Shown here: positions 1-50,988 of the stretch, piece by piece
How the letters are laid out: each line of letters opens with the position of its first letter
How positions within the stretch are numbered: position 1 is the first letter of the stretch
Assembly: GCA_006218035.1 (NCBI GenBank)
Contig: VBWC01000010.1
Location: forward strand, 203,572-267,571
Direction of reading: 5' to 3'
Source of the DNA: Gammaproteobacteria bacterium
Lineage (GTDB): Bacteria > Pseudomonadota > Gammaproteobacteria > VBWC01
DNA: 64,000 nt
The notes under the pieces: generated by a model
Databases searched by the model: none
Told to the model about the DNA's origin: nothing
The model's input: the letters and a program-made list of their open reading frames with translations, nothing else
Program-made: the position numbers and the translations under genes

Positions 1-434
1 CGCGGCCGCTCGGTGAGCCGTTTCAGCTCGACGAGTATCGGCTCGAACACGGACTGCAATTCGGTGCGCCAGTTGAATGCCGTTTCGGTTTTTACACCGA
101 ACAGGCTGAGGTCCGCCCCGCCGGTCGCCATCATTTCCCACGCGGTCTGTAACGATTCCAGATCGAGCTCCAGTTGCTCGACGTCTTTGGCGATGCGCTC
201 GCGCTCCTGCGCATCCCGAGTGGCAGCCAGATCCCGCCGCCGCCCGGAGAGCTCCTGGCTTTTGGCGTTGATGGTGGTGACCAGTACATCGAGATGCGGC
301 CAATTGCCCGGGCTGGCCGCGGTTTCTGCGGTTGGCGCGGCCGCGGTCTCATCGCCGGGCGCGGCGTGCGCGTTGGCCAGCACACCGCTGGCGATGACGG
401 CAAGGAGCAGAATTCGAATCAGTGTGGCGGTCAT
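1..434 (-). CDS. 5' part of a secreted or periplasmic protein. The reverse complement of 1..434 reads MTATLIRILLLAVIASGVLANAHAAPGDETAAAP...ELSGRRRDLAATRDAQERERIAKDVEQLELDLESLQ..., a signal peptide followed by coiled-coil. It may be the N-terminal periplasmic region of an MscK/KefA-type channel. The gene continues upstream beyond the window.
   Basis: I translated it by hand. ATG is at 432-434 on the minus strand, followed by a hydrophobic h-region, AHA and charged coiled-coil-like sequence. It is not in the supplied ORF track because no stop falls inside the window. The listed ORF 13..450 on the plus strand looks like an antisense artefact. Confidence 0.4.
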   Translation of the reverse strand, partial: MTATLIRILLLAVIASGVLANAHAAPGDETAAAPTAETAASPGNWPHLDVLVTTINAKSQELSGRRRDLAATRDAQERERIAKDVEQLELDLESLQTAWEMMATGGADLSLFGVKTETAFNWRTELQSVFEPILVELKRLTERP

Positions 435-483
435 ATATCGTGGCCTTTAATGAATGAGGGAAATCCTGATCAAGTGGCTTCTT

Positions 484-612
484 GTCATTTCGACCGCAGG
501 CGACCGCCATGGATGGCGGAAGGTTGATGCGGTGGACTCGCATCGGAGCGTTTACTACCCGGATTTCTCGCCAGCTCCCTCGCGATGCTCGGGACAGGGC
601 TCGAAATGACAC
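484..612. repeat. MITE-like repeat, family A copy 1, about 129 bp. It is bounded by imperfect terminal inverted repeats: gtcatttcgacc ... ggctcgaaatgacac.
   Basis: Its 5' module gtcatttcgaccgcaggcgaccgccatggatggcgg is nearly identical to 7160-7195. Its 3' module ggatttctcgcc.gc.ccctcgc..tgctcggga.cagggctcgaaat.ac recurs at 7278-7337. Confidence 0.6.
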
Positions 613-772
613 TTAATCAGAGCTTCCTGAGGTGATTCTCGACGATCCGCGCGGTTGTGACAACCGGCACGGCGGGGTTGGTAACAAGAGCGTCATGCCG
701 CGAGCGGCGAACGAGGGCAACGCATGGAGGTACTGCCGGGAACGAGGCGAATTTACCGCAACGATGAATTGA

Positions 773-975
773 CCCCCTCACCCTGAGGGAGAGGGGGTAA
801 AAACAGGATCCGCGATTTGTAGGATGGGTGGAGCCGCAGGCGTAACCCATCAGAACCCGCGACTGTCATTCCGGGCGGCGCGCAGCGTACGAGTCCACGG
901 ATGGGCGAGGTAGAGTCGTGCCGGGAGCAAGGACCGAGACCATGTCTGGAACTAATGGTCGAGACCCGGAATCCA
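773..975. repeat. Mosaic intergenic repeat, family B copy 1. Modules are ccctgagggagagg, aggatccgcgatttgtaggatgggtggagccgcaggcgtaacccatcagaac, gtcattccgggcggcgc and cccggaatccagag.
   Basis: It is near-identical to 2697-2900 in the same orientation, and reverse-complement-similar to parts of 10470-10700. Confidence 0.6.
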
Positions 976-1175
976 GAGGTGGCCGGGGGCGGCTGGATCG
1001 CGCAGGCGATCGCGTCGAGGTTTAGTTGGCCGGCGATTACGCGAGCGACACGCTAATGATATTGCCGACGTGTTAGCTATTGTGTCGTGTTGGGTGTTGG
1101 CAATTGATCGGTCACTGGTGGCGATCGCAGTGCATCGGGTAGCGCATCTGCAATCCATCAGTCCAACCACCCGAA

Positions 1176-1220
1176 CGAGGATCAGAGAAACAGGCGCAAG
1201 GCCTGTTTCTCTGATCCTCG
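1176..1220. repeat. Perfect 20-bp inverted repeat with a 5-nt loop: cgaggatcagagaaacaggc gcaag gcctgtttctctgatcctcg.
   Basis: Read directly from the sequence. There is no T-tract on either side, so it is not a canonical intrinsic terminator. Confidence 0.5.
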
Positions 1221-1280
1221 CGTATGGACCGAACGTTCACATGGCGGTGCGGTCTATACGGCGTGCATTGGCGTCCCGGG

Positions 1281-1568
1281 TCACGCGGCCGCGGTGGCTG
1301 ACTTGGCCTTGATTCCGGGGAAGGCCAGGCTCTTGAACAATGAGTAAGCCGGGTCCCAGCCGATAATCGCACTGATAATCGTCGGTATCGCCAGCAAGGG
1401 CAGGATAACCATCCAACCGGCAAACTCCGGCGCGGCAAGCAGGAACGCCACTATCACTGCCGTCCCGATAAGAAACCGCGCAAACCGGTCCACGTTGCCC
1501 AAATTCGGGTTAAAATTGAAATGCCATTTAATCGTGTTCACGTTCTTTTCTCCATTACGTCTATCCAT
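1281..1568 (-). CDS. Small inner-membrane protein of the DUF2892 (YgaP-like) family.
   Basis: NLGNVDRFARFLIGTAVIVAFLLAAPEFAGWMVILPLLAIPTIISAIIGWDPAYSLFK is the characteristic two-TM DUF2892 core. I chose an internal Met (MDRRNGEK...) as the likely start. The ORF track extends to 1673. Confidence 0.55.
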   Translation of the reverse strand: MDRRNGEKNVNTIKWHFNFNPNLGNVDRFARFLIGTAVIVAFLLAAPEFAGWMVILPLLAIPTIISAIIGWDPAYSLFKSLAFPGIKAKSATAAA

Positions 1569-1713
1569 GAATCGGCTCCTGTCAGGGGCCTGTCCACAGG
1601 CTGCTCGACTGAGCAGGTGAGCACAATGCCCTTTTGCGCGGGCGATATCCAATGACATATTCACATCGGACACATAACCATCAAGCTATGAGTAACAAGG
1701 CAGACCACATCAG

Positions 1714-2652
1714 ATGAATCTCTCACCGCGCAATTTCAAGAATGTTTCCTTTCGCCAACTGCAGGTATTCGAGTGTGTCGCGAACCTCGGTAACTTCACC
1801 GCCGCTTCGCGCGAGCTGCACATCACGCAGCCGACCGTTTCCATGCAGATGAAGAGACTGGAAGAATCGCTGAATACACGCTTGTTCGAACAGGTCGGGC
1901 GTCAGGTGCACCTGACCTACGAGGGCCATGCGTTTCTGACCACGTGTCGCGAGATATTCACAGCGGTGACGCGTTTCGATACGCGTATCGAAAACCGCAT
2001 CGAAACGGTGAGCGGCACACTCAGAATATCCGGCGTGACGACCACCGAATATTTTGTGTCGGTGCTGGTCGGGGCGTTCAAGCAGTTTTATCCGCAGGTA
2101 AATTTTTCCCTGAGCATCCTTGAGCGCGAAAATCTGTTTCGACGCCTGAAAGACAATTCCGACGACCTGTACCTGCTCGATCAGGTGCCGAAAAATATCG
2201 AGGTCGAAGCTATTCCATTTATCAAAAACCCGCTCGTCATCGTCGCTTCCGCCCATCATCCGCTCGCTAAGCGTAAGCATCTGACGATGGATGCGCTGCT
2301 GAACGAGACGTTTCTGCTGCGGGAACCGACGTCCGGTACGCGTATCGCACTGAAAAAGTTTCTGGAGAGCAAGGCCATCACCTTGAACATCGGCATGGAG
2401 CTGAGCAGCAACGAAGCGCTGAAGCAGGCGGTGGCGAGCAATATGGGTCTGTCGGTGCTGTCGCAGTACTGCGTCGCGCGCGAGTGCGCGCGCGGTGAAC
2501 TGGTGATGCTCAATGTGCATGGATTTCCGCTCGTCGATCGCTGGTACATCGTTCACCCGAAAGACCGGCATTTGTCACCGGCCGCGGCGGCATTTCTGCG
2601 CTTCCTGCTGGATGACGGCGCCGGTGTGATCGAGCAGATCGTGCGGGTGTAA
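1714..2652 (+). CDS. LysR-family transcriptional regulator.
   Basis: N-terminal HTH (FRQLQVFECVANLGNFTAASRELHITQPTVSMQMKRLEESL) and a LysR substrate-binding domain. It is transcribed divergently from the DUF2892 gene. Confidence 0.9.
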   Translation: MNLSPRNFKNVSFRQLQVFECVANLGNFTAASRELHITQPTVSMQMKRLEESLNTRLFEQVGRQVHLTYEGHAFLTTCREIFTAVTRFDTRIENRIETVSGTLRISGVTTTEYFVSVLVGAFKQFYPQVNFSLSILERENLFRRLKDNSDDLYLLDQVPKNIEVEAIPFIKNPLVIVASAHHPLAKRKHLTMDALLNETFLLREPTSGTRIALKKFLESKAITLNIGMELSSNEALKQAVASNMGLSVLSQYCVARECARGELVMLNVHGFPLVDRWYIVHPKDRHLSPAAAAFLRFLLDDGAGVIEQIVRV

Positions 2653-2696
2653 GGCCGGCCGGCGAGCATGCAAGGGATAACTACATTATCAAATGA

Positions 2697-2900
2697 CTCC
2701 CTCACCCCAACCCGATACCCGCAAGGCATAAATCCCTGAGGGAGAGCAGGATCCGCGATTTGTAGGATGAGTGGAGCCACAGGCGTAACCCATCAGAACT
2801 CGCAACTGTCATTCCGGGCGGCGCATAGCGCCGACCCGGAATCCAGAGTTTGCTGGTTTGGAAAAAAGCTGGATTCCCGCGTTCGCGGGAATGACGATGG
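2697..2900. repeat. Mosaic intergenic repeat, family B copy 2, plus the hairpin module ggattcccgcgttcgcgggaatgac.
   Basis: Near-identical to 773-975. It ends in the palindrome ggattcccgcg ttcg cgggaatgac. It lies between two convergent genes (the LysR regulator and the GGDEF/EAL sensor). Confidence 0.6.
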
Positions 2901-2972
2901 TCTTTTATTTCTTCGCGGCGACCGTTTTGCGCGCGGCGCTGGCGCGACGGCGGGCCACGGCCCGCTTTTCCA

Positions 2973-5900
2973 TCAACTCTCCAGCAACCGCACAAACTCC
3001 CGTGACGGCACGGCGGGGGAATAGAGGAATCCCTGGGCGTAGTCGCAGCCGAAGGAGGCGAGCAGGTCGTGCTGTGCCTGGGTTTCGATGCCTTCGGCAA
3101 CGGTGCGGATGCCGAGCTTGCGGGCCATGACGATGATGGCCTCGACCAGCGCGATGTCGTTGTCGTTGCCGGGCAGGTAGTGCACGAACGAGCGGTCGAT
3201 CTTGAGGTAGTCGATGTTGAATTGTTTCAGGTACGACAGCGACGAGAAGCCGGTGCCGAAGTCGTCGATCGATACTTCGATACCGTTGTTTCTGAATTCC
3301 AGCAGGCGCTGTTTGACCTTGGGCGATTCCTTGAGCAGCAATCCCTCGGTGATTTCCACGGTGATACTGTCGCCCGGCAGGCCAAGGTCTTCCAGAATTT
3401 TCGACCACTGCTTGACGACGGGAAGCTCGAACTGTACCGGCGATTTGTTGATACTGACCTGGATGATGTCGCCGAACTGCTTGCGCCACTGGTCAATGTT
3501 GACGCAGGCATCCTGAAATACCCATTCGCAGATGTCGGCGATCATCCGGGATTCTTCGGCCAGCGGAATGAACACTTCGGGCTCGATCATGCCGCGCACG
3601 GGATGTTGCCAGCGCAACAGCGCTTCGGCCTTGACGATCTTGCGGTGCTTCATGTCGATGATGGGTTGATAGAACACGCGAAGCTCGCCCTTTGTCAGCG
3701 CGTGCCGCAAATCATCGGTCAGCGCGCGCTTCTCCTGTGCTTCCTGTTGCATCGATGGCGTGAAGTAACCGAAGCGGCTGCGCCCTTCGCCTTTCGCGCG
3801 GTACATAGCCTGGTCGACGTGTTTCATCAGGCTGTCGAAGTCCTGCGCGTCATCGGGGCACAGCGTAATGCCGACGGTCGCGGAGATATAACCGAAGTCT
3901 TTGCTGCCGAGGCAAAAGGGCTTGTTCAGTTCCTGAATGATTTCCTGCGCGACGCGCTCGACGTCGTCCGTGTCGCCGAATTCAGGCAGGATCACCGTGA
4001 ACTCATCACCGCCGAGGCGCGCGACCGTATCGGCATCGCGCACGCAGGCGCTGATGCGGCGTGCGGCCTCGATCAGCAGCACGTCACCCTTGGCGTGTCC
4101 CAGCGTGTCGTTGATTTCCTTGAAGCGATCGAGATCGATCAATAACAGCGCAATTGGCGAACCGGTGCGGTGGGACTTGCGGATCTCCATTTCCAGACGG
4201 TCCTGGAACAACCGGCGGTTGGGCAGGTTGGTCAGCGGATCATAATTGGCCTGCGTCCAGATCAGTTCGTCCTGGCGCTTCTTTTCGGTGATGTCGGAAA
4301 ACTGCGCGATATGGCGGTAGACACTGCCGTCGGCATGGGGGATGACGCTGATGTTGACCCATTTGGCGTACACCTCGCCGTTCTTGCGCCGGTCCCAGAT
4401 TTCGCCCTGCCAGTGGCCGTCGTTGAGAATGCCGCGCCACATCTCACGGTAAAACGCGTCGTCGTGCCGGCCGGACTGCAACAGGCTCGGGTTCTGGCCG
4501 GCGACCTCGGCCAATGTATAGCCGGTGATGCGCGTGAAAGCCGGGTTGATGTCGACGATGCGGTTGCGCTCGTCGGTCACCATGATGGCTTCCATGCTGG
4601 ATTCGTAGATCGACGCCGCCAGCCGCATGTTCTCTTCGGCCTGCTTGCGCTCGGTGATGTCCATGGCCGCGCCAATTGCGTAACGGGGCTTGCCGGCACG
4701 GCCGCGCACGATAACGCCGCGATCGTGTACCCAGAACACCGTGCCGTCGCGACGTATCAGTCGATGCTCTGTGTCATAGGCGCCTGATTCGAGACCCAGA
4801 TCCCAGGCCCGGCGTATCTCCGGCACGTCGTCCGGATGCATATGGGAAAACCAGTCTTCCAGCGGCTGCGTGCTCGGCTCCGCCGGCAGGCCAAGCATGC
4901 GGTTCAACGAGGCATCGCGGGTGTCGATGTTAGTGCGCAAATCGACGCGCCAGGTACCGGTATTGCTCGCGTCCAGCGCCTGTTCGAGTCGCTCGTGACT
5001 TTCGCGCATCGCCGCTTCGATTCGCTTGAGCTCGGTGATGTCCCAGTGGGTGCCGACCAGACGCTGCACGCGGCCATGCTCGTCACACACAATTTCGCCA
5101 TGGGCCTTGATGTGCCGTATTGCGCCGTCCGGCCGGACGATGCGGAACTCGGTATCGAAGGGATTCGGTTCCCGTAGACAGGCCTGTACGTCGGCTTCCG
5201 CCTGCGCAATATCGTCCGGATGCACGCGGCAGCGCCATGCTTCGTAATCGCCCGAGAATTCCTCGCGACGTATGCCGTAGAGCGGAAACATGCTGTCGCC
5301 CCAGATAAGTTTGCCGCTGTCGACATTCCAGTCCCAGATACCGACGCCACCCGCGCGCGTGGCGAGTGCGAGGCGCCCTGCGCTTTCGCGCAGCGCGTTC
5401 TCCATTTGCTTGCGCTCGGTGAGGTCGACGATGGCGCCGACGGTACGCACCAGGCGGCGCGCGGCTCCCTGACCTTCGAACACGGCCTGTGAACGCGCGA
5501 TCACCCAGCGTATCGTGCCGTCGGTGCGCACCAGCCGGAACTCGACGACAAACAGTCCGTCGGCCTCGGCAGTGGCTAGATCGTGGGCATTGCGGATACT
5601 CGTCATGACTCGCTCGCGATCGTCCGGATGAACATGCGCGACAAAGGCATCGAACGTCGCCGGGTCATTGGGCGCGCGGCCGTAGATGTCCCGCAGCTCG
5701 GGAGACCAGTAGAGCGTGCCGGTGACGTGATCATGATCGAAGATGCCGCTGCGGGACGCGCGGGTCGCCTGCCGCAGCCGTTCCTCGCTTTGCTGCAAGG
5801 CCTCCGCGGCCTGCTTGCTCGCGGTGATATCGCGCGCGAATCCAACCGTGCCGAGCACATTGCCGTCCTTGTCGAGGATCGGCGTCTTGTTGGTCTCGAC

Positions 5901-6962
5901 CCAGATGTGGCGGCCCTTATCCACCACGTATTCTTCGATCTGTTTTCGTTTGCGCGTCGCCATGACCTCGGCATCGTCCGCACGGAATTTTTCCGCCAGC
6001 TCCCGCGGCCAGACATCGAGGTCCGTTTTGCCCAGTATTTCCTGCGGATCCGTTCTTCCAGCCGATATCACGTGTGGCATATTGACTGCGATGTAACGCC
6101 CTTCGGTATCCTTCAGCCACAGCAGATGCGGAATATTGTCCAGGATGGCATTCAGGTTAGCCTTTTCCTGCATCAGCGCGCGCTCGGCCTGCTTGAGTGC
6201 GGTGATGTCGTGGAACACACACTGGAAAATGATCTGGCCGTCGGGCAGGGTGATGGTGCGAATTGACACTTTTACGTCGAGAATGCGCCCGCTTTTCGTT
6301 TTGTGCCGGGACATGAAATCCTGCCTGCCGGTCGCCATGAGCCGCTGCATGATTTCCTGTATCTGAGCTTCGTTGAAGGCCAGCGAGTAATCCTTGACCC
6401 GCAGTTGCAGCATCTCCTCGGCCGAGTATTCGTAGACACGCAGCGCCTCGTCGTTGAAGCCGATGACGCGGTAATCGCTATTAATCAGCACGACACTGTC
6501 CGGCAACTGGCTGAAGAGCGTCTGGTAGCGCAGCTCGATCGCCTGTTTGTCGTTTTCGAGCCGCTTGTGAGCCGTGATGTCTTCGACAAGACACAGCAGG
6601 CTGTCGGGGGCGGCGGTGTCTCCTTTGATCGGTATCACGAGCACCGACGCCCAGATAACGGTGTTGTCCTTGCACAGGTAACGTTTCTCAACGCGGTAAC
6701 TGGGGATATTCCCGATTACCAGCTCGCTCAGACCGTCGATGTTGTGACGGATATCGTCAGGATGGGTAATTTCAGTGAAGCTGCGCCCGATCAGCTCGGC
6801 GCGGGGATAACCGAGCATTGCGCAGTAGGATGGATTGACGTCGAGAATCGTGCCGGCCAGATTTCCGTGGACGACCCCCAGCCCGGACGGCGCCAGCGCG
6901 GCAAATATTTCCGTTACCGTCGTATGTGACCGCCTGGACATACCTCTTCCCGGATCGAACAA
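2973..6962 (-). CDS. Multi-PAS/PAC sensor diguanylate cyclase/phosphodiesterase: PAS repeats, then GGDEF, then EAL.
   Basis: GGDEF motif (RLGGDEFTVIL), EAL motif (EALLRWQHP), and multiple PAS/PAC units. 1329 aa. Confidence 0.9.
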   Translation of the reverse strand: MFDPGRGMSRRSHTTVTEIFAALAPSGLGVVHGNLAGTILDVNPSYCAMLGYPRAELIGRSFTEITHPDDIRHNIDGLSELVIGNIPSYRVEKRYLCKDNTVIWASVLVIPIKGDTAAPDSLLCLVEDITAHKRLENDKQAIELRYQTLFSQLPDSVVLINSDYRVIGFNDEALRVYEYSAEEMLQLRVKDYSLAFNEAQIQEIMQRLMATGRQDFMSRHKTKSGRILDVKVSIRTITLPDGQIIFQCVFHDITALKQAERALMQEKANLNAILDNIPHLLWLKDTEGRYIAVNMPHVISAGRTDPQEILGKTDLDVWPRELAEKFRADDAEVMATRKRKQIEEYVVDKGRHIWVETNKTPILDKDGNVLGTVGFARDITASKQAAEALQQSEERLRQATRASRSGIFDHDHVTGTLYWSPELRDIYGRAPNDPATFDAFVAHVHPDDRERVMTSIRNAHDLATAEADGLFVVEFRLVRTDGTIRWVIARSQAVFEGQGAARRLVRTVGAIVDLTERKQMENALRESAGRLALATRAGGVGIWDWNVDSGKLIWGDSMFPLYGIRREEFSGDYEAWRCRVHPDDIAQAEADVQACLREPNPFDTEFRIVRPDGAIRHIKAHGEIVCDEHGRVQRLVGTHWDITELKRIEAAMRESHERLEQALDASNTGTWRVDLRTNIDTRDASLNRMLGLPAEPSTQPLEDWFSHMHPDDVPEIRRAWDLGLESGAYDTEHRLIRRDGTVFWVHDRGVIVRGRAGKPRYAIGAAMDITERKQAEENMRLAASIYESSMEAIMVTDERNRIVDINPAFTRITGYTLAEVAGQNPSLLQSGRHDDAFYREMWRGILNDGHWQGEIWDRRKNGEVYAKWVNISVIPHADGSVYRHIAQFSDITEKKRQDELIWTQANYDPLTNLPNRRLFQDRLEMEIRKSHRTGSPIALLLIDLDRFKEINDTLGHAKGDVLLIEAARRISACVRDADTVARLGGDEFTVILPEFGDTDDVERVAQEIIQELNKPFCLGSKDFGYISATVGITLCPDDAQDFDSLMKHVDQAMYRAKGEGRSRFGYFTPSMQQEAQEKRALTDDLRHALTKGELRVFYQPIIDMKHRKIVKAEALLRWQHPVRGMIEPEVFIPLAEESRMIADICEWVFQDACVNIDQWRKQFGDIIQVSINKSPVQFELPVVKQWSKILEDLGLPGDSITVEITEGLLLKESPKVKQRLLEFRNNGIEVSIDDFGTGFSSLSYLKQFNIDYLKIDRSFVHYLPGNDNDIALVEAIIVMARKLGIRTVAEGIETQAQHDLLASFGCDYAQGFLYSPAVPSREFVRLLES

Positions 6963-7137
6963 CCACTGCCGGCCATATTGGCTTTTCCTGGCCGCCGTGT
7001 AAACCCGGGGAGATCAGGGTGTGAGATATTGGCGGCTGGCACCGGGTTACCGGCCGGGCGTCGCTTAGCTTCGACGCGTTTGGGGAGTGATCACCGTTAT
7101 AAGGCGGGCATCACGGAGTTAACCCAATTTGGGTCGG

Positions 7138-7337
7138 TATCATTCCGACCTGGATCGGTGTCATTTCGACCGCAGGCGACCGCCATGGATGGCGGAGGGT
7201 AGAGCAACGCAGGAGCAGTTGCCGGGAGAAATCCGTGTCTCGAACATCCGTTCGAAAAAAAGGTCTCTCACCTTCGTTCGAGACATGGATTTCTCGCCCG
7301 CCCCCTCGCTGCGCTCGGGACCAGGCTCGAAATAACA
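7138..7337. repeat. MITE-like repeat, family A copy 2, about 178 bp plus a partial upstream half-repeat gtatcattccgacc. It has an extra internal insert carrying a 10-bp inverted repeat tgtctcgaac...gttcgagaca.
   Basis: Its 5' and 3' modules match 484-612. It sits between the GGDEF/EAL start and the 3' end of the E2-E3 gene. It produces spurious ORFs 7129..7335 and 7235..7495. Confidence 0.6.
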
Positions 7338-7398
7338 GGTGGGTAATACCACCGAATCGTCGTTCAAGGCCCGGGCTTTCCCGGCCGTGGACAATCCG

Positions 7399-10300
7399 CT
7401 ATTTCTTCGCCGCAACCTTCTGTGAGCGGCGCAAACGCGACAGCAACCGTCGGGCCATTTCGCCGAAGAGTTCGGTCTGGGTCGGGTGCGGGTGAATGGC
7501 GTGGGCGACCTGGTCGAGCGTCAGTTGGCCCGCAACCATCATGACGGCCTCGCCGATCAGCGTGTCGGCATGGTCGGTGAGGAAATGCACGCCGATGATG
7601 CGGCGGCTGGCCTTGTCGGCGACGAGTTTGATCATGCCGAGCGTTTCTCCGGTGATCATGGCCTTGGCGTCGATGCTCATCGGCATTTTCACTTCGACGG
7701 CGTCGATGTTTTTTGCCTTGGCCTGTTCCACCGACAGGCCGACGAATGCGGCCTGCGGACGCGTGAAGATCACGCCACAATCCTTGTCCTGGTCGTAGCG
7801 CGCGGACTCGCCGCTGATCGTCGCCGCGGCGACGCGGCCCTGCGTGGCGGCGGTATGCGCGAGCATGTAGCCACCGATGACATCGCCGACCGCGAAGATG
7901 TGCGGCACGTTGGTGCGGCACGACGCGTCGGCCTTGATCAGGCCCTTTTCGCTTTGCACGCCGGCGACGTCGAGGTTCAGCGGATCGAGCACCGGGCGCT
8001 TGCCGGTCGCCATGATCACGTAATCACACGCAAGCTTCTTCGCGCGGCCGCCGGCGGGTTTGTAAGTAAGCTCCATCTTGCCCGGCTTGCCGCTGATCTT
8101 CTCGACCTTCGCGGAGGTGTGCACGGTCAGACGCTTGTCGTCGTTGAGTATCTTGGCAAGGTTGGTGGCGATCTCCGGTTCGACCTCGGCGAGCAACCGA
8201 TCCTGCACTTCTATCAATGTGACCTGCGCGCCGAAGTCCTGGAATATCTGCGCCATCTCGACACCGATCGCGCCTCCGCCGACAACGGCGAGTTTTTTCG
8301 GTGCCTTGCTCAGGAACCAGACCGTATCGGATGTCAGCACGCCGCCGGACGCGAGCCCTTCTTTCGCACCGGATACCGGCGGCACGAACGGCGGTGCACC
8401 GGTGGCAATCACGGCCGCGCCGAAGGTGATGCGTTGCCCCTTGTTGCCGTTACCTTGCGGCGCGCGCGCGTGCGGGTCTTTGCGGTTGCCGGAGGTGTCG
8501 ACGAACACGGTGTGGTCGTTTTCAAACCGTGCAAAGCCCTGGATGACTTTGATCTTGACGCCGGTGTCGGTCTTCAGCGCCATGTCGCCGCGCGTTTCGA
8601 GCACGCCACGGCGGGTTTTTTCGAGCACTTTCCAGTCGAGCTTTGCAACGTTGGTGCCTTTCACGCCGAGGCGCGCGTCGTGCGCGCGATCGCGCATGCG
8701 ATCGGCCGCGGCGCGCCACGCCTTGGACGGAATGCAGCCGCGCCACAGACATTCGCCGCCGGGGAACGACGAGTCGTTGATCATCGCGACCTTGAGGCCG
8801 TGCTCGACGAGTTCGCGGGCGCAGTCTTCGCCGCCGGGGCCGCCACCGATGACGACGACGTCATAGTCCCACTTGCCGGCCGGTATCGCCGGACCGCTTG
8901 GGCCCATCCAGCCGTCCGGCTGTTCGATGTACTGCTTGAGTGTGTTCAGATACATGGCCACATCCGCTCCGTTAACGACGCGGTGATCCGCGGTGATCGT
9001 GAGCGGCATGCCCCGCTCGTCGGCTGAAGAGATCGCGAGTATCGCGGCCGTGCCCGGCGTTGGAATTGCATCGAAGTACGTCACACCGAGCATGCCCATG
9101 TTCGATACCATGAACGTCGGATTTTGAAATTCGGCCGGCTTCAGGCGGCGCTTGCGCGCGCGCGGGACGAGGTCACTCCAGTCCGTGTTCAGTTCCTTGA
9201 GCGTGCGCGATTCACAGTTACGCAGTATCGGCACCACCAGGCCGCCATCGTCGGCGGCGACAGCGACGCCGATATCGACGTTGGCGCGCTCGACAAGTTT
9301 GTCGACCGGCTGGTAGGCCCAGTTCATGTTCGGGTGTTTTTGCATGGCCAGCGCGCAGGCTTTGGCGATCGCGACCGAGACCGAGATGCCGGCCTTCTTC
9401 GCCGCGCTGATCAGTGCCGTGGGTTGCGCGTTCAGACTGACGCGGAACGTCGGCATGCTTAGCGCGCCGCTCATGGCCTGCGCAATGTTGCGCTCAAGCG
9501 AGGTCATCGGCCGGCCGGCACCGGGCACTTCAACGACCGGGAACGCCGCGCCCGCCGGCGCGGCCGGCGCAGTGCGTTGCACGTCGGTACCGACGATCAC
9601 GTTGCGCGGGCCGCTGCCGGCCAGCATGTTGAGATCGACGCCCGTCTGGCCGGCGAGTTTGCGCGCGTACGGTGTCGCGAGCTTGCTCTTCGGGCGCGGC
9701 GCGGGACGCGTGCCGGCTGTAGTCGCCGATGATGACGGCGCGGCGGTCTTCTTTTTCTTCTGCGGCTCTGCGGCCACAGCGGCGACGGGCGCCATCGCGC
9801 CGCTCTGCACCTGCGCCTTGGCCTCGACCAGATAACCCATCGCCGCGCCGACCGGAATCACGCTGTCGGCCTCGGCCAGCGGGCCGGACAGAAAACCCTC
9901 GCGAAACACCTCGACGTCCATGATCGCCTTGTCGGTCTCGACGCTGGCGACGATGTCGCCGCGTTCGATCTTGTCGCCAACCTGCTTCTGCCATTCAACG
10001 ACAACACCTTCGGTCATCGTGTCCGACAGCTGCGGCATTTTGATTATGTGGGTGACGCCTGCGGGTTCGGCGGATGCCTGCGGTGCGGCGCTGGCCGGTG
10101 CGACGGCGGGTGCTTCGGATGCTTCTTCATCGCCGGACGCCACCAGCGCCTCGCCGGCTTCCGCGACAACCTCGTTCGCGCTGGCGACCAGATAGGCTAG
10201 CGCGCCACCAACCTGCACGACGCTGTCGACGGCCGCGCGCGGACCAGACAGCCAGCCCTCGCGGAACACCTCGACATCCATGATGGCCTTGTCGGTCTCG

Positions 10301-10422
10301 ACGGTCGCGACGATGTCGCCGCGCTCGATCCTGTCGCCGATGTTCTTCTCCCAGCTCACGACCACACCTTCGGTCATCGTGTCGGAGAGCTGCGGCATTT
10401 TGATGGTGTAGGGTTGAGACAT
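7399..10422 (-). CDS. Fused dihydrolipoyl acyltransferase (E2) and dihydrolipoyl dehydrogenase (E3). It has two lipoyl domains, a peripheral-subunit-binding domain and an E2 catalytic core (aa 1-506), a Pro/Gly linker, then a full FAD/NAD E3 (aa 518-1007).
   Basis: Lipoyl-lysine motif ETDKA occurs twice. PSBD: PYARKLAGQTGVDLNMLAGSGPRNV. E2 active site: DHRVVNGA. E3 motifs: DYDVVVIGGGPGG, the redox disulfide GGECLWRGCIPSK, and the C-terminal HPHPTQTE. There is one uninterrupted frame and the junction is ...QPDGWMGPSGPAIPAGKWDYDVVVIGGGPGG. Confidence 0.85.
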   Translation of the reverse strand: MSQPYTIKMPQLSDTMTEGVVVSWEKNIGDRIERGDIVATVETDKAIMDVEVFREGWLSGPRAAVDSVVQVGGALAYLVASANEVVAEAGEALVASGDEEASEAPAVAPASAAPQASAEPAGVTHIIKMPQLSDTMTEGVVVEWQKQVGDKIERGDIVASVETDKAIMDVEVFREGFLSGPLAEADSVIPVGAAMGYLVEAKAQVQSGAMAPVAAVAAEPQKKKKTAAPSSSATTAGTRPAPRPKSKLATPYARKLAGQTGVDLNMLAGSGPRNVIVGTDVQRTAPAAPAGAAFPVVEVPGAGRPMTSLERNIAQAMSGALSMPTFRVSLNAQPTALISAAKKAGISVSVAIAKACALAMQKHPNMNWAYQPVDKLVERANVDIGVAVAADDGGLVVPILRNCESRTLKELNTDWSDLVPRARKRRLKPAEFQNPTFMVSNMGMLGVTYFDAIPTPGTAAILAISSADERGMPLTITADHRVVNGADVAMYLNTLKQYIEQPDGWMGPSGPAIPAGKWDYDVVVIGGGPGGEDCARELVEHGLKVAMINDSSFPGGECLWRGCIPSKAWRAAADRMRDRAHDARLGVKGTNVAKLDWKVLEKTRRGVLETRGDMALKTDTGVKIKVIQGFARFENDHTVFVDTSGNRKDPHARAPQGNGNKGQRITFGAAVIATGAPPFVPPVSGAKEGLASGGVLTSDTVWFLSKAPKKLAVVGGGAIGVEMAQIFQDFGAQVTLIEVQDRLLAEVEPEIATNLAKILNDDKRLTVHTSAKVEKISGKPGKMELTYKPAGGRAKKLACDYVIMATGKRPVLDPLNLDVAGVQSEKGLIKADASCRTNVPHIFAVGDVIGGYMLAHTAATQGRVAAATISGESARYDQDKDCGVIFTRPQAAFVGLSVEQAKAKNIDAVEVKMPMSIDAKAMITGETLGMIKLVADKASRRIIGVHFLTDHADTLIGEAVMMVAGQLTLDQVAHAIHPHPTQTELFGEMARRLLSRLRRSQKVAAKK

Positions 10423-10439
10423 CGGGTCAGCTAGTTATC

Positions 10440-10860
10440 TTTTTAGTTCTGCCGTTGCTAGTCGTGCCTGCACAAGCAGGAATCCAGTGTTTTGATGGGT
10501 TGCGCCTGCGGCTGCACCCATCCTACGCGTGTTCCCCCTCTCCCTTAGGGATTTATACCCTGGGGGTAGAGGGTCGGGGTGACGGAACAAACTTCTAGTT
10601 AACTCCCTCATCCTCGGCAACTGCTCCTGCGTTGCTCTCGGTCGTTGCTCCCGGCACGACTCTACCTCGCCCATCCATGGGCTCGTACCTCCTGCATCCA
10701 TGCAGTCGTGTCCTTCTCCCCAAAGGAGAAGGGACGCTTTCGAATTATTCACCAATACCAAATTCAGACTGGTTGCGCCCCACCCTGTCTTTCCCCCTCT
10801 CCCACAGGGAGAGGGCGGGGTGAGGGGATCACTATTCAGCCGGCGGTTACTACCGTCACT
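10440..10860. repeat. Block of mosaic repeats: an inverted copy of family B modules plus ccctctccc..agggagagg palindromic modules. It fills the E1-beta to E2-E3 intergenic region.
   Basis: 10490-10520 is the reverse complement of gtaggatgggtggagccgcaggcgtaacccatc. 10650-10690 is the reverse complement of 895-950. 10618-10645 is the reverse complement of 7204-7228. ccccctctcccttagggat and ccccctctcccacagggagagggcgggg resemble 781-800. Confidence 0.6.
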
Positions 10861-10867
10861 AATACCT

Positions 10868-11848
10868 TTACTTCCCCATCATCGCCCGCACCGCCTTCAC
10901 GACATCCTTGGCATGCGGGATCGTGGCTTTTTCGAGGGCGTGGTTGTAGGGGATCGGGATATTGACGGCGGAGACGCGTTTCGGCGCGGCATCGAGTTCG
11001 AAGAAACATTCTTCGTTGATAATCGCCATGACCTCGGCGCCTACACCGACGGCCGGTTCGGCCTCTTCGACGATCACCGCGCGATGCGTCTTCGACACCG
11101 ACTTTTTTATGCCGGCGCGATCCAGCGGGCTTAAGCAGTACAGGTCCACAACTTCGCAATTGATGCCGTGCTTGTCGGCCAGCAGCTTCGCCGCCTCCAG
11201 ACACCAGTGCACCGAGATGTTGTAACCGAACAGTGTCACATCCTTGCCCTCGCGCGCGACCTCCGAGCCTACCAGCGGATGGAAGAATTCGGCGTCGGGC
11301 ACCTCGCCCTTCATGTTGTACATCAGCTCGTGTTCATAGATGAACACCGGGTCGTTGCAGCGCACGGCCGACTTCAGCATGCCATAGGCCTGGCGCGGGT
11401 TCGACGGCGTGACGACGCGCAGACCGGCAATGCCCATGAAGACCTTTTCCATGCGCGCCGAATGCTGCGCGCCCAGCTGATGCGCGGTGCCGCCCGGCGA
11501 GCGGATCACGACCGGCGCCGTCAGCTGGCCGCCGGACATGTAACGCACCTTGACCGCGGAATTGGCAATCTGGTCCAGCGCCAGCCACGCGAAGTTGACG
11601 GACATGATCTCGATAATCGGCCGCACGCCGAGAAACGACGCGCCGATACCGAGGCCGGTGTAGCCATTCTCTGAAATCGGCGTATCGATAATTCTTTCAG
11701 GGCCGTATTTGTCGTACAGGCCTTGCGTCGCCTTGTAGGTACCACCGGCCACACCAATATCTTCACCCATCGCGATCACCAGCGGATCGTTCGCCATCTC
11801 TTCATCGTGGGCACGGCGGATCGCCTCCCAGAAGCGTATCTCGGCCAT
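10868..11848 (-). CDS. 2-oxoacid (pyruvate/acetoin-type) dehydrogenase E1 component beta subunit.
   Basis: Transketolase-like pyrimidine-binding and C-terminal domains, typical of PdhB/AcoB. Its start overlaps the E1-alpha stop at 11848. Confidence 0.9.
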   Translation of the reverse strand: MAEIRFWEAIRRAHDEEMANDPLVIAMGEDIGVAGGTYKATQGLYDKYGPERIIDTPISENGYTGLGIGASFLGVRPIIEIMSVNFAWLALDQIANSAVKVRYMSGGQLTAPVVIRSPGGTAHQLGAQHSARMEKVFMGIAGLRVVTPSNPRQAYGMLKSAVRCNDPVFIYEHELMYNMKGEVPDAEFFHPLVGSEVAREGKDVTLFGYNISVHWCLEAAKLLADKHGINCEVVDLYCLSPLDRAGIKKSVSKTHRAVIVEEAEPAVGVGAEVMAIINEECFFELDAAPKRVSAVNIPIPYNHALEKATIPHAKDVVKAVRAMMGK

Positions 11849-12852
11849 CAGCTCGCCCCTCCCTGTGCACCGCCCGTTACCCAGGGATCGTTCTCGGCGA
11901 ACAGATACTTCTCCAGTTCGGCAACGTCCGGTTCCGGCGACTGTTCGGCGAACGGCACGATTTGGTTGTCTATTTCATCGAGTATTTCTTTGTCCATCGC
12001 CTTGAACTCGGCCATCGTCAGCACCTTGGCCTTGATCAAACGCTCGCGCAGGATATTGATCGGGTCGCGCTCGATCCATTCCTTCTCTTCGTCCTTGGAG
12101 CGGTAGGTGTTGGAATCGGACATCGAGTGGCCGCGATAGCGGTAGGTCATCAGCTCGAGAAAATACGGTCCCTTGCCGGAACGGACATGATCGACCGCTT
12201 TCTGCGCGGCCTTGTAGACGATCTCGATGTCCTGGCCGTCGACCTGTTCGGACGGAATGTTGTAACCGGCGACGCGCTTGTATTGATCCAGCACCGCCGT
12301 CGAACGGTCGATGCGCGTGCCGATGCCGTACAGGTTGTTTTCGCAGACATAGAGCACCGGCAATTTCCAGACCGATGCCATGTTCAGCGCCTCATGAAAG
12401 CTGCCCTGGTTGTTGGCGGCATCGCCGAGAAAGCAGATCGCGATCTCTTCTCCGCCCTTCAGCTTGATGGCCTTGGCCATGCCGGCCGCCAGCGGAAACG
12501 GCCCGCCGACCAGCGCATAGCCGCCCATGAAGCGGTGCTCGACATCAAATATATGCATGGAGCCGCCACGGCCCTTGCAGGTGCCGGTTTCTTTGCCGTA
12601 TAGCTCGGCCATGACCGCCTTGGGGTCGGCGCCGCTCAGCATGGCGTGGACGTGATCCCGGTAGCCGGTAATCACATAATCGAATCCCGGCTTTGCCGCC
12701 GCCATCACGCCATGGGCGCAGGCTTCCTGACCCGGATACAGGTGCAGGAATCCGCCGATTTTGCGCTCGACATAGCCTACGTAACAGTGCTCCTCGAAAC
12801 GCCGGGAAAACAGCATGTCGCGGAGCAGCCGTTTCTTATCAGTGTTATTCAT
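11848..12852 (-). CDS. 2-oxoacid dehydrogenase E1 component alpha subunit (TPP-binding).
   Basis: TPP motif GDAANNQG...NN, and the phosphorylation-loop-like YRYRGHSMSD, typical of PdhA/AcoA. Confidence 0.9.
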   Translation of the reverse strand: MNNTDKKRLLRDMLFSRRFEEHCYVGYVERKIGGFLHLYPGQEACAHGVMAAAKPGFDYVITGYRDHVHAMLSGADPKAVMAELYGKETGTCKGRGGSMHIFDVEHRFMGGYALVGGPFPLAAGMAKAIKLKGGEEIAICFLGDAANNQGSFHEALNMASVWKLPVLYVCENNLYGIGTRIDRSTAVLDQYKRVAGYNIPSEQVDGQDIEIVYKAAQKAVDHVRSGKGPYFLELMTYRYRGHSMSDSNTYRSKDEEKEWIERDPINILRERLIKAKVLTMAEFKAMDKEILDEIDNQIVPFAEQSPEPDVAELEKYLFAENDPWVTGGAQGGAS

Positions 12853-28340: not shown

Positions 28341-29513
28341 ATGCCGGAGCCATTGATGTCGAATTACGCCCGCTTGCCGGTCACGTTTGAACGGGGCGAA
28401 GGCGCCTGGTTATGGGACGAGCACGGGCGCAAGTACCTGGACGCGCTCAGTGGCGTCGCTGTCTGCGGGCTGGGGCACGCGCATCCTGCGGTCACGCAGG
28501 CGATCTGCGATCAGGCCAACCAGCTGGTGCACACGTCCAATCTCTACAGCATCAAGCATCAGCAGCGGCTGGCCGAGGAGCTGACCGCGCTGTCTCGCAT
28601 GCAGAGCAGCTTTTTCTGTAACTCCGGCGCGGAAGCCAACGAGGCGGCGCTCAAGATCGCCCGGCTGGTCGGGCATGCGCGGGGCATCGGGATTCCGACG
28701 ATAGTCGTGACCGAAAACAGTTTCCACGGCCGCACATTGGCGACGCTGACGGCCACTGGTAATCTGAAAATCCAGCAGGGCTTTGAACCGCTAATGCCGG
28801 GATTCGTCCGCGTGCCTTATAACGATGTTGCGGCGCTGCGCGCGCTAGCGAAATCCGATCAGAATATTGTCGCGGTGCTGCTGGAACCGATCCAGGGCGA
28901 GAGCGGCGTGAATATCCCCGACGACGACTACCTGAACCAGGTACGCGCGATTTGTGATACGCATGACTGGCTGATGATGCTCGATGAGGTACAGACCGGC
29001 ATGGGCCGCACCGGCAGGTGGTTCGCGTTTCAGCATCACGGGATACAACCGGACGTCATGACGCTGGCGAAAGGACTGGGCAACGGCGTGCCGATAGGTG
29101 CGTGCCTGGCGAGTGGCGTCGCGGCGGCCGCGTTCACGCCGGGCAGCCACGGCTCGACGTTCGGCGGTAATCCGCTGGCGTGCCGTGCGGCGCTCGCGGT
29201 GGTCGATACGATGCGGCGTCATGAGCTGGTGGAACGCGCCGCGTATCTCGGCAACCGGATACTGACGACGCTGCAACGCGAACTGGCGGGATGCGGTCAT
29301 GTGAAAGCCGTGCGCGGCAAGGGATTGATGATCGGCGTCGAGCTGGACCGGCCGTGCGCCGCGCTGGTAAAGCAGGCGCTGGAACACGGGGTCTTGATCA
29401 ATGTCACGGCGGAAAAGGTGATCCGGCTGCTGCCGCCGCTGATCCTGACCGATGCCGAGGCCGACCAGATCTCGGGCACCGTCAGCCGGCTGGTCACCGG
29501 CTTCACGCATTAA
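28341..29513 (+). CDS. argD: Acetylornithine/succinyl-diaminopimelate aminotransferase, class III PLP.
   Basis: Class-III aminotransferase motifs, including the Lys in [12 protein letters not shown]...TLAKGLGNG. It sits directly upstream of argF. Confidence 0.9.
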
Positions 29514-29544
29514 GCGGAACGCAGCCGACAATCACGAGCGAGCC

Positions 29545-30462
29545 ATGGCAAAACGGCATTTCCTGACACTGATGGACCTGAGTCCGGCGGAATTGCGCGG
29601 ACTGGTCGCGCGCGCGATCGAGCTGAAGCAAATGCAGCGCGACGGCAAGACCTACGAGCCACTGAAAAACAAGGTGCTCGCGATGGTGTTCGAGAAATCG
29701 TCGACGCGTACGCGTGTGTCGTTCGAGGTCGCGATGAGCCAGTTCGGCGGCACTGCGATCTTCCTGTCGCCACGCGATACCCAGCTGGGTCGCGGTGAAC
29801 CCGTGGAGGACACGGCACGCGTGCTGTCGCGCATGGTCGACGTCATCATGATACGCACCTACGAGCACGAAAAGGCCGAGAGCTTTGCCGCCAATTCAGG
29901 AGTGCCGGTGATCAATGCCCTGACCGACCGGCATCACCCGTGCCAGTTGCTTGCCGACATGCAGACGTTCTACGAGCACCGCGGCGACATCCGCGGCAAA
30001 ACCGTCGCCTGGATCGGCGACGGCAACAACATGTGCCATTCGTATATCGATGCCGCCCGGCAATTTGCCTTTCAGCTGCGGATCGCGACGCCAGCGGAAC
30101 ATCAGCCGGACCCGGATACCCTCGCGCAGGCCGGCAACCACGCGCGTCTCGTGTCCAATCCACAAGAAGCGGTACGCGGCGCACATCTGGTCGTGACAGA
30201 CGTCTGGGCCAGCATGGGCCAGGAAGATGAACAGGGCAACCGCCGCCAGGTGTTCCAGCCGTTCCAGGTAAACGGCGAGCTGATGGCGGCAGCCAGCGCG
30301 GATGCGATCTTCATGCATTGCCTGCCGGCGCACCGCGGTGAGGAAGTAACTGCGGAAGTGATCGACGGAGGCCAGAGCGTGGTGTGGGATGAAGCCGAGA
30401 ACCGCCTGCATTCCCAGAAGGCTCTGCTTGAACTACTCCTGTGCCAGGGAAGCTCTGATTAA
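29545..30462 (+). CDS. argF: Ornithine carbamoyltransferase.
   Basis: STRTR carbamoyl-phosphate motif, the HCLP motif, and an [13 protein letters not shown] start. The ORF track starts at 29452, inside the argD 3' end. Confidence 0.9.
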
Positions 30463-30477
30463 TCATTTTGTTGCCAT

Positions 30478-30602: not shown

Positions 30603-30633
30603 CAGAGCTCCCCTGGCTGCGCGGCCATTAACA

Positions 30634-30664: not shown

Positions 30665-30679
30665 GAATCCAAAATCTTT

Positions 30680-50912: not shown

Positions 50913-50988
50913 AAAACTCCCACACGCTCCGATTCCCCCTCGGCATCAAAGGTATCGACAACCGCGAGGTATTCTTAAACATCGACGG

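Follow-up and report, generated by a model that had tools for sequence, protein, structure and literature searches.

We analysed 64,000 nucleotides of DNA from a gammaproteobacterium (contig VBWC01000010.1, positions 203,572 to 267,571; the whole 64-kb stretch is called the window below), in which five intergenic regions are occupied by short repeated modules that fold into hairpins. We read these five regions as nested pile-ups of four kinds of non-coding hairpin mobile DNA that are moved in trans, and put the probability of this reading at about 0.8. The four kinds are palindromes tagged with CGTC, palindromes tagged with GTAG, miniature inverted-repeat transposable elements (MITEs) and a unit of 47-49 nt made of two unlike hairpins. 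The regions consist of non-coding hairpin elements with recent gain or loss. The sequence-only reading of the window had taken the modules for mosaic elements of the repetitive extragenic palindrome (REP) and MITE type, which was essentially right, but its element boundaries and its placing of copies in divergent regions were not.

Repeat modules recur within the window and across genomes

The repeat-bearing intergenic regions (n = 5) lie at 435-1283, 2653-2972, 6963-7398, 10423-10867 and 30463-30679, and modules recur among them in both orientations and in varied combinations, far above chance. Repeat finding and a sensitive self-BLASTN of the window recovered every pairing that had been described, with all modules at or near the places first assigned to them. 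Within the window, 483-524 matches 7159-7200 (98%), 561-611 matches 7287-7337 (84%) and 804-881 matches 2747-2824 (95%), while 819-856, 887-939, 7201-7224, 2808-2846 and 2698-2799 match the reverse complements of 10489-10526 (92%), 10636-10688 (94%), 10615-10638 (100%), 30557-30595 (87%) and 10489-10586 (79% over 103 nt), respectively. A 25-mer of module A, the module whose middle holds the two-hairpin unit, has 2 matches in the window against 0.00 expected from shuffles.

The same modules occur in other metagenome-assembled genomes (MAGs), in metagenome contigs and in Pseudoalteromonas chromids, which bears out the dispersed, mosaic non-coding family that had been proposed in place of local duplications. 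The first 22 nt of module A have exact matches in 4 other gammaproteobacterial MAG species, at 9 loci in all, of which six belong to one MAG and several lie at contig ends. The 24-nt core of module A (AGAGCAAYGCAGGAGCAGTTGCCG) is present in more than 120 metagenome contigs (a lower bound) and in six viral contigs; a viral contig scan for the GTAG palindrome of the window gave 0 matches. At 94-96% identity, the unit is also carried by six Pseudoalteromonas chromids, with 1-5 copies each, and the GC content of the host contigs that bear it extends from 37% to 67%. Counts from the genome collection and the metagenomes come from single exact-match scans and are lower bounds, and the taxonomy of most metagenome hosts is unassigned.

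An account without transposition would start from a few ancestral palindromes and have local duplication, together with gene conversion and illegitimate recombination, produce the modules. The window copies all lie within 31 kb, most of them within 11 kb, and an 84-nt direct repeat, described below, flanks a 1.94-kb segment that is absent from a relative, with the junction within the repeat, both of which this account would explain. It fares badly with the presence of the same modules in other species and unrelated contexts, with insertions of exact length in unrelated genes and with textbook target duplications at a MITE; it is already largely refuted, and we consider it very improbable.

Public assemblies of the LysR region of the window end inside repeats. 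Two independent short-read assemblies (L001 and L002; Logan SRR8863435 and SRR8863439) end at about 900 and 2895 of the window, and module A stands at the contig starts of three other loci (L004, L007 and L009); contig ends fall within repeats because repeats break assemblies.

Composition of the repeat mosaics

For comparison we used a syntenic contig of a relative (L140), which has 84-95% DNA identity to the window. The repeat features of the window are as follows.

455-631, plus strand: MITE-1 (459-627, 169 nt; 455-631 with its duplications), with terminal inverted repeats (TIRs) GGAAATCCTGATCAAG... and ...CTTAATCAGAGCTTCC, aligned with other copies
483-612, plus strand: family A copy 1, a CGTC-like inverted pair (TGTCATTTCGACCGCAGG ... 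GCTCGAAATGACA) within MITE-1
500-532: hairpin-1-only fragment of the two-hairpin unit (covariance-model match), within family A copy 1
771-800, unstranded: CCCTCACCC-TGAGGGAGAGGGGG palindromic module, with related copies at 2697-2746, 10531-10586 and 10780-10828
804-887, plus strand: 84-nt composite, direct-repeat copy 1 (linker, GTAG palindrome 819-851, start of a CGTC palindrome)
864-976, plus strand: CGTC palindrome, TGTC-ATTCCGGG ... CCCGGAAT-CCAG, with its empty form at 2807-2846
888-937: variant two-hairpin unit, nested in the CGTC palindrome (covariance-model E 8e-4)
2697-2746, plus strand: CTCCCTCACCCCAACCC...CCCTGAGGGAGAG palindromic module
2747-2830, plus strand: 84-nt composite, direct-repeat copy 2, including the GTAG palindrome 2762-2794
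2807-2896: head-to-head CGTC dimer, TGTCATTCCGGG..CCCGGAATCCAG (2807-2846, plus strand) and CGTCATTCCCGCGAACGCGGGAATCCAG (2869-2896, minus strand), with a 22-nt spacer
7159-7337, plus strand: family A copy 2, two inverted copies of the 26-nt CGTC-like unit that carry nested inserts and lack outer MITE ends
7176-7224, plus strand: 49-nt two-hairpin unit (GCGACCGCCATGGATGGCGGAGGGTAGAGCAACGCAGGAGCAGTTGCCG) in the loop of the left 26-nt unit (63 bits, E 3e-15)
7226-7295, unstranded: inner hairpin of small units with the GAnCGnAGnGA loop, including a 26-nt segment absent from L140
10461-10488, minus strand: degenerate CGTC-like palindrome, the first of three adjacent elements in 10461-10586
10531-10586, minus strand: CCCTC...GAGGG module, adjoining the GTAG palindrome 10494-10526
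10615-10710, minus strand: split two-hairpin unit (outer hairpin 2 at 10615-10638, nested 48-nt unit at 10639-10686, outer hairpin 1 at 10687-10710)
10709-10828, unstranded: further palindromic modules TCCTTCTCCCCAAAGGAGAAGGGA and CCCCTCTCCCACAGGGAGAGGG
30444-30615, plus strand: MITE-2 (30448-30611, 164 nt; 30444-30615 with its flanks), with ends GGAAGCTCTGAT...ATCAGAGCTCC

In the CGTC-tagged palindromes a (C/T)GTC tag is combined with a CCA tail and a stem whose first bases are AT; most of them stand as head-to-head inverted pairs. One hairpin of this kind (TGTC-ATTCCGGG...CCCGGAAT-CCAG) is found at 2807-2846, at 864-976 and, reversed, at 30557-30596, and another (CGTC-ATTCCCGC-GAAC-GCGGGAAT-CCAG) at 2869-2896, reversed. 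The unpaired tag reads TGTC at 864, 2807, 483 and 7159 and CGTC at 2896 and 30596 (reverse strand), and the tail ...GGAAT-CCAG ends the copies at 2843-2846 and 973-976 and, on the reverse strand, at 2869-2872 and 30557-30560. Published CGTC REPs are defined by a (C/T)GTC tag, a stem of 8-9 bp starting AT, a loop of 4-5 nt and a CCA tail (PMC3733652). The copy at 2869-2896 fits this stem and loop, whereas 2807-2846 and 30557-30596 have the right stem but a 16-nt loop; the palindrome at 864-976 carries the nested variant unit (888-937) and a further small hairpin in its loop, and loops with nested inserts reach 100 nt. The 26-nt unit of the family A elements, TGTC-ATTTC-GACCGCAGGGA-GAAAT-CC, is related to the CGTC palindromes and departs from their published stem and loop, with a 5-bp stem and an 11-nt loop of the pattern GAnCGnAGnGA; small relatives with other stems and the same loop pattern are nested in the pairs of this unit.

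In the window, head-to-head dimers lie at 2807-2896, 483-612, 7159-7337 and within 30448-30611. The first of these folds as DNA at -27.8 kcal/mol (z -5.4) and family A copy 2 (7159-7337) at -46.7 kcal/mol (z -5.4). The family A elements had been described as bounded by TIRs (gtcatttcga...tcgaaatgac), but these are two inverted copies of the 26-nt CGTC-like palindromic unit, and from their sequence we read them as a head-to-head REP dimer in the same inverted-pair layout as 2807-2896. Family A copy 1 additionally contains a hairpin-1-only fragment of the two-hairpin unit at 500-524, where its L140 orthologue has GAAAAATCC.

The GTAG-tagged palindrome, GTAG-G-ATGGGT(15-nt loop)ACCCAT-C, has three copies, at 819-851, 2762-2794 and 10494-10526 (reversed), each with GTAG directly 5' of the palindrome. 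Two of the three are part of the 84-nt composite with a CGTC palindrome, whose direct repeats (804-887 and 2747-2830) are 93% identical, and the third belongs to a composite with the CCCTC...GAGGG module (10489-10586) that corresponds to 2698-2799 in reverse orientation. The 84-nt repeats bracket 1.94 kb with a ygaP-like and a lysR gene, and exactly that segment is absent from L140, the junction of the indel being inside the 84-nt repeat; the segment could have been deleted in L140 through the repeats or inserted in the window.

The MITE layer comprises elements of 160-170 nt with GGAAGCTCTGAT TIRs, 4-bp target duplications and a CGTC palindrome pair inside. Family A copy 1, for which the inner repeats had been taken as boundaries, ends further out, at 459-627, with another TIR (GGAAATCCTGAT...ATCAGAGCTTCC) and a 4-bp TGAG duplication at 455-458 and 628-631, and the whole element folds as DNA at -33 kcal/mol (z -2.7). 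The MITE-like nature claimed for family A thus stands for copy 1, which lies within true MITE ends, and not for copy 2, which is without them; neither copy 2 nor the 47-nt unit carries TIRs of the MITE type. MITE-2 encloses a head-to-head CGTC palindrome pair whose spacer has a 20-nt tandem duplication, its flanks are imperfect (CCAG and CCTG), and its left end (30448-30462) forms the end of the ornithine carbamoyltransferase gene, from the four final codons (GSSD) to the TAA stop. In an alignment of the window copies with the L140 orthologue of MITE-1, a copy in L006 and an extra copy in L140, MITE-1 and MITE-2 share their outer TIRs (GGAAGCTCTGATTAAG... / ...ATCAGAGCTTCC) around different CGTC dimers. 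Perfect 4-bp duplications accompany the copies in the window (TGAG), in L006 (TTTA) and at the extra copy of L140 (CTAG); this last is a further copy of the MITE-2 element, and the window has an empty single CTAG site at that place. Read from the sequences, the TIRs, the 4-bp duplications and the empty site are textbook MITE signatures. The GGAAG ends and 4-bp duplications, together with a length of 160-170 nt and presence/absence variation, may point to elements of the IS5 family, although no parent insertion sequence (IS) with these ends was found in the plasmid collection or the 143 fetched loci, and the interior, a CGTC palindrome pair, differs from the deleted IS sequence of a typical MITE. 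BLAST of the plasmid collection with the MITE end returned only 20-nt chance matches at E = 1, which we rejected.

A two-hairpin unit of 47-49 nt

The middle of module A, missed by the sequence-only reading, is a separate two-hairpin unit of 47-49 nt nested in the left arm. This unit recurs, is dispersed across genomes, shows stem covariation, has filled and empty sites and interrupts genes with exact length. The 9 external copies of module A are nearly invariant over about 75 nt, followed by a variable hairpin and a closing stem, and an empty paralogue (L004:4767-4868) is without precisely the central 49 nt, which shows that the conserved middle was inserted into the loop of the left 26-nt unit. 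The layout of the unit is (A)CGAC, stem 1, the loop NGGA, stem 1', GAGGTAGA, GCAAC, GCAGGAGCA, GTTGC and CG, and the metagenome copies give the consensus ACGACTGCATGGATGCAGGAGGTAGAGCAACGCAGGAGCAGTTGCCG. Hairpin 1 combines a variable stem with the conserved NGGA loop, the linker contains GTAG, and hairpin 2 (GCAAC-GCAGGAGCA-GTTGC) is preceded by GTAG-A.

In 109 distinct copies, aligned without reference to structure, 76 cells of hairpin 1 are changed on both sides of the stem, compared with 22.7 +/- 3.9 in shuffles (0 of 500 as high), and pairing is 82%, a value that drops below 50% when the partners are slid. The sequence of hairpin 2 is fixed by the exact-match scan in those 109 copies; compensatory stems are found for it in the same loci (GCAAT/ATTGC, GTAAC/GTTAC, ACAAT/ATTGT and ATAAC/GTTAT) and in the window (GTCGT/ACGAC). 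As single-stranded DNA the unit folds into both hairpins (-10.1 kcal/mol, z -3.7).

The only matches of the unit's covariance model in the window are at 500-532, 888-937, 7176-7225, 10614-10662 and 10683-10710, which confines the family to the intergenic regions that had been named at the outset. The unit-within-unit architecture of 10615-10710 is likewise present in three other loci (L064, L096 and L128). Searches of open-access full text with sequence or peptide strings from the modules returned chance matches only, and the unit is absent from the supplements of PMC3733652; on sequence, it fits no named family that we could find. Several candidate identities were dismissed by inspection, in that defining motifs are lacking or both orientations work: a sigma-54 promoter, attC and dif/Xer sites, a tRNA-derived, signal recognition particle or tmRNA fragment, a CRISPR repeat and a translational-bypass element.

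Filled and empty sites, gene interruptions and target choice

Comparison of insertion sites with L140, which had been proposed as a check, gave filled/empty differences for the 49-nt unit, the 48-nt unit and a MITE. Family A copy 2 had been said to carry an extra insert and indeed has several; where it holds the 49-nt unit at 7176-7224 (placed with a 2-nt GG ambiguity), L140 has the empty site TGTCATTTCGACCGCAGG|GAGAAATCC. Likewise, L140 has an uninterrupted single unit where the 48-nt variant of the window (10639-10686) nests between GGAGGT and AGAGCAAC.

In metagenome loci the unit interrupts transposase genes of the IS91 family, IS66, IS21 and IS4-like kinds as well as DUF222/HNH genes. Exact deletion of 47 nt restores open reading frames (ORFs) with a single Pfam domain across the junction (Y2_Tnp, DDE_Tnp_IS66, rve and DUF222), the match of DDE_Tnp_1 in the IS4-like case being marginal. 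The insertions in IS66, IS21, IS91 and DUF222 genes have no duplicated flanks and no terminal repeats, and units lie within coding genes in both orientations with the frame broken. The restored long ORFs of L033 (877 aa) and of the high-GC loci L058, L123 and L136 were set aside as read-through artefacts. A decayed copy of the unit (97% over 37 nt) is found on a Moellerella plasmid (L138:3001-3037; NZ_CP093250.1) and likewise in Salmonella (NZ_CP133280.1); in L138 it lies in frame within an annotated intact BREX pglX methyltransferase gene, where it encodes ...DDCMDAGGRATQ..., a peptide also present in the IS91-like ORF of L089.

These inserts also bear on whether the whole mosaic could be ordinary DDE MITE biology, with the palindromes and the 47-nt unit only internal passengers that never move by themselves. 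Both 459-627 and 30448-30611 do have true TIRs and enclose CGTC pairs, and similar terminal repeats flank units in L097, L084 and L006. Passengers of this kind would not, however, account for bare 47-nt gene inserts with neither TIRs nor target duplication, for a 47-49-nt unit present or absent alone within an otherwise conserved element, or for family A copy 2, the 2807-2896 dimer and the GTAG palindromes, all without outer ends, and we hold this explanation to have very little chance of being correct.

The insertion sites of the unit show a preference. The flanks of the unit are mutually complementary over at least 9 nt in 12 of 136 copies, compared with about 1 of 136 in shuffled pairings, so the loop of another palindrome is a frequent position of the unit. 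In 88 of 129 copies (68%) the first two bases of the 3' flank are AG, read as CT on the complementary strand, and in gene interruptions this AG belongs to the host gene. Such a preference explains why units nest at their own GGT|AGAG junction, why arrays grow in tandem at the GCCG|AGG end and why hosts of the ...GGGAG|AGAG... type are frequent. Tandem arrays of the unit have a 47-nt period, with 5.5 copies at 99% identity in L105. In L079 the unit sits exactly in the loop of the palindrome GTAGGGCGGTTTCGCGCCAGCAAACCGCC, whose empty form flanks a RAYT gene (REP-associated tyrosine transposase) in L059. That RAYT-like gene (L059:9560-10320), confirmed as Y1_Tnp by Pfam, is preceded by two copies of the palindrome.

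IS91-family genes, whose products are HUH enzymes as well (Y2 transposases), make up 7 of about 125 unit-bearing loci, and their units lie at two recurrent sites, one at GSSIT|YRIAVGP (L040, L102, L089 and L096) and a second in L068 and L080. The units at these sites are of differing stem-1 variants, some of them nested doubles, both ORF halves are open, and the flanking coding DNA of the homologues has diverged (at about one third of positions, by eye). The recurrence may mean that these sites are a hot spot, that the insertion is old and has been tolerated, or that unit and gene are functionally linked. When 792 kb of unit-bearing loci were tested for enrichment of neighbouring genes, no protein family stood next to the unit with any consistency, and the families that recur near it are the interrupted transposases themselves.

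The pairing and placement of the unit could also be those of a structured RNA, in which the unit, and perhaps other hairpins, would be a small RNA, an attenuator or a terminator/stabiliser maintained because its transcript is under selection. Compensatory changes preserve the pairing of both hairpins, loops and linker show high conservation, copies are placed close to the ends of genes and within an operon, and REPs are known to affect mRNA stability (PMC3733652), all of which would suit an RNA. The orientation of units to flanking genes is, however, unbiased (6 sense, 5 antisense), and G-T pairs (18) are not above A-C mismatches (26), therefore neither strand is favoured. The frame-breaking copies within coding genes in both orientations, the nesting in other repeats, the tandem arrays and the variable presence between related genomes also count against an RNA, as do the Rfam searches, which gave no match at gathering score in the window and nothing relevant at E <= 1 or E <= 10 in the unit-bearing loci and window positions 400-11000. 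We therefore regard an RNA role as the basis of the unit's conservation as unlikely.

A possible route of movement

Under the reading of nested mobile elements, the MITEs would be moved by a DDE transposase encoded elsewhere, and the 47-nt unit, and probably the palindromes, would be cut and joined as folded single-stranded DNA. The putative enzyme would be of the HUH-type tyrosine class and act in trans, being RAYT/IS200-like or possibly IS91-like. We infer a single-strand HUH-type enzyme for the unit because it has a hairpin close to either end while lacking both terminal repeats and a duplication; because its GTAG stands one base 5' of a 5-bp palindrome, similar to the Marinomonas REP cut by its RAYT, where the 5-bp palindrome is two bases from GTAG; and because the preferred flank, CT on the complementary strand, is the TnpA-REP cleavage dinucleotide (PMC8266576). 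Purified TnpA-REP enzymes cleave single-stranded REP DNA at CT and perform strand transfer in vitro (Corneloup et al. 2021, PMC8266576), and excision footprints have been reported for REPINs (Bertels & Rainey 2011, PMC3116915). The unit would insert mainly at positions directly 5' of AG, often into the loop of a different palindrome, into a copy of itself or beside one, and adjacent self-insertion would give rise to tandem arrays. Side effects on the host would be repeat-mediated recombination, of which the 1.94-kb indel of two genes would be an example, changes at the 3' ends of genes, and possibly transcripts that are stabilised or terminated within the pyruvate dehydrogenase operon.

Several observations weigh against this scheme. 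No enzyme is linked to the unit, in that no transposase flanked by units was found in the unit-bearing loci, and the RAYT-like genes of L059 and L086 were rejected as its partners, since they lie 6-7 kb from the unit and have other palindromes at their flanks. The unit has its GTAG on one strand and the preferred CT on the other, and its hairpins are only 2-4 nt from the ends, unlike the geometry of IS608. Neither the plasmid collection nor the 143 fetched loci contain a full-length IS with the MITE ends, and for CGTC palindromes no dedicated transposase is known (PMC3733652). The cognate transposase that the sequence-only reading had envisaged is not in the window: Pfam on 45 ORFs identified no RAYT, IS200/IS605, IS91 or DDE transposase, and a search with an E. 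coli RayT sequence as the query, which covered every window ORF of 70 aa or more, found no RAYT. In addition, the copies counted are those of the 64-kb window and the fetched loci, and the invariance of the 24-mer and hairpin 2 is partly an artefact of exact-match collection. We propose only tentatively, at somewhat less than even odds, that the 47-nt unit is a free-standing mobile element, among the smallest known, which would be moved single-stranded by an HUH enzyme in trans, insert near CT without duplication, prefer hairpin loops, itself and transposase genes, and remain near-unchanged across gammaproteobacteria of 37-67% GC.

Genes and other features around the repeats

The window has a GC content of 56% and the ordinary chromosomal genes of a gammaproteobacterium, with the remainder mostly polysaccharide biosynthesis; by E1-beta protein the closest named relatives are Thiohalobacter, Thiogranum and Ectothiorhodospiraceae (~85-86% protein identity). 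The genes that adjoin the repeats are listed below.

3-434, minus strand: secreted protein, family unknown
1284-1568, minus strand: YgaP-like membrane protein
1714-2652, plus strand: LysR regulator
2973-6962, minus strand: PAS x5-GGDEF-EAL protein
7399-10422, minus strand: fused E2-E3 dehydrogenase component
10868-12852, minus strand: E1-beta and E1-alpha
29452-30462, plus strand: ornithine carbamoyltransferase
30680-31318, minus strand: di-haem cytochrome c

Elements had been said to prefer gene ends and convergent or divergent intergenic regions. Convergent genes do flank two of the five repeat regions, but none is divergent, and the other three are co-directional, one of them within the E1-E2 operon. 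In that operon the E1-beta/E2 spacer is a repeat hot spot, with 445 nt of the window's repeats and 541 nt in L140. The spacer of a more distant relative (L141) is 475 nt long and is occupied by another repeat, and the place seems to be a general landing site for repeats. The repeat of L141 is about 200 nt long (...TTTCTTTTCTTTGCC...AAAGAAAAG...CTCGCCGCTCCGCGG...), lies at 7080-7330 and 10560-11160 in at least two copies, one of them inverted, and fills both the E1-beta/E2 spacer and the spacer after E2. The neighbouring E2-E3 fusion (7399-10422) is a single protein of 1007 aa with two lipoyl domains and is kept in L140 and L141; a 228-nt DNA repeat inside the gene (9825-10052 and 10185-10412, 80% identical) exists because of the two lipoyl domains.

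Other structures of the window stand apart from the mosaics. Downstream of the ygaP-like gene, a perfect 20-bp inverted repeat with a 5-nt loop and no T run (1176-1220) has no relation to the repeat families of the window. Just outside MITE-2, a GC-rich hairpin between A and T runs (30628-30668; AAAAAAGCGGGC...GCCCGCTTTTTTTT) sits between the convergent carbamoyltransferase and cytochrome c genes and looks like a bidirectional intrinsic terminator. Two adjacent genes of the polysaccharide locus (49194-52755; 572 and 588 aa), with no Pfam match, have 297 nt in common at 70% (50391-50687 and 52234-52530) and are probably paralogues, function unknown. Three tandem 60-nt repeats (39378-39561) lie within the gene for an 812-aa malectin-domain protein.

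Relation to known repeat families and significance

Mosaic arrays named NIME are a feature of the Neisseria meningitidis genomes, GTAG-tagged REPs were reportedly described by Nunvar in 2010, and small dispersed repeats of heterocystous cyanobacteria are said to have been described by Elhai et al. in 2008. The overall mosaic is a new instance of such known kinds, namely CGTC and GTAG REPs, NIME/BIME-like mosaics, REPIN-like dimers and MITEs. With CGTC REPs, dRS3 and NIME the window shares the tag, the AT stem (ATTCCCGC/ATTCCGGG), the CCA tail, head-to-head dimers, mosaic clustering and the absence of a linked transposase, and differs in the larger loops and the 5-bp 26-nt unit given above, in the position of some dimers within true MITE ends and in a sulfur-oxidiser-like gammaproteobacterial host. 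Published CGTC REPs include dRS3 of Neisseria and occur mostly as head-to-head dimers in mosaic clusters (PMC3733652).

The GTAG palindromes (GTAG-G-ATGGGT..ACCCAT) and hairpin 2 of the unit resemble the GTAG REP/RAYT system, in which palindromes with this tag are what RAYTs recognise, with GTAG 0-1 nt 5' of a short perfect palindrome, covarying stems, clustering, nesting, tandem arrays and CT-adjacent insertion. Unlike a REPtron, the unit breaks gene frames, has no RAYT flanked by it among the loci examined and carries GTAG and CT on different strands. REPINs are inverted pairs of the same REP that form one long hairpin (PMC3116915) and are described as lineage-specific and vertically inherited, whereas the 47-nt unit is not a REPIN because its two unlike hairpins, differing in stem, loop and flanks, stand in tandem, and its sequence is common to hosts of widely differing GC.

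Like IS200/IS605 elements and PATEs, the unit is without TIRs or duplication, has a hairpin near each end, inserts by a short preferred sequence and favours hairpin or single-stranded targets. It is, however, about two- to eight-fold smaller than IS200/IS605, its hairpins are closer to the ends (their distance in those elements being 10-19 nt) and unlike each other, and its target is a loose dinucleotide (AG/CT, ~68%) instead of a fixed tetra- or pentanucleotide. The small repeats of cyanobacteria and the palindromic elements of Rickettsia are similarly very small and insert into one another, MITEs and genes, but differ in sequences, hosts and architectures; the Rickettsia elements are in frame and tolerated, whereas most gene insertions of the unit break the frame, the decayed pglX copy being an exception.

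The mosaics affect the genome that carries them: a two-gene segment of 1.94 kb has been lost or gained, the 3' end of a carbamoyltransferase of the arginine pathway has been rewritten by a MITE, and a pile of repeats stands within the pyruvate dehydrogenase operon. The assembly breaks at the repeats also matter for MAG quality. How REP-type palindromes spread is still unsettled, and little direct insertion evidence for GTAG REPs is given in PMC3116915 and PMC8266576. The filled/empty orthologous sites, the exact 47-nt interruptions of five gene families and the target preference that matches CT are supplied here, and they make the question of dissemination testable on a defined 47-nt substrate. 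If the proposal for the unit is true, its natural filled and empty sites and its gene interruptions would document the insertion of a REP-like element directly, a kind of evidence that has been scarce so far, and the unit might be a widespread disruptor or regulator of insertion-sequence transposases.

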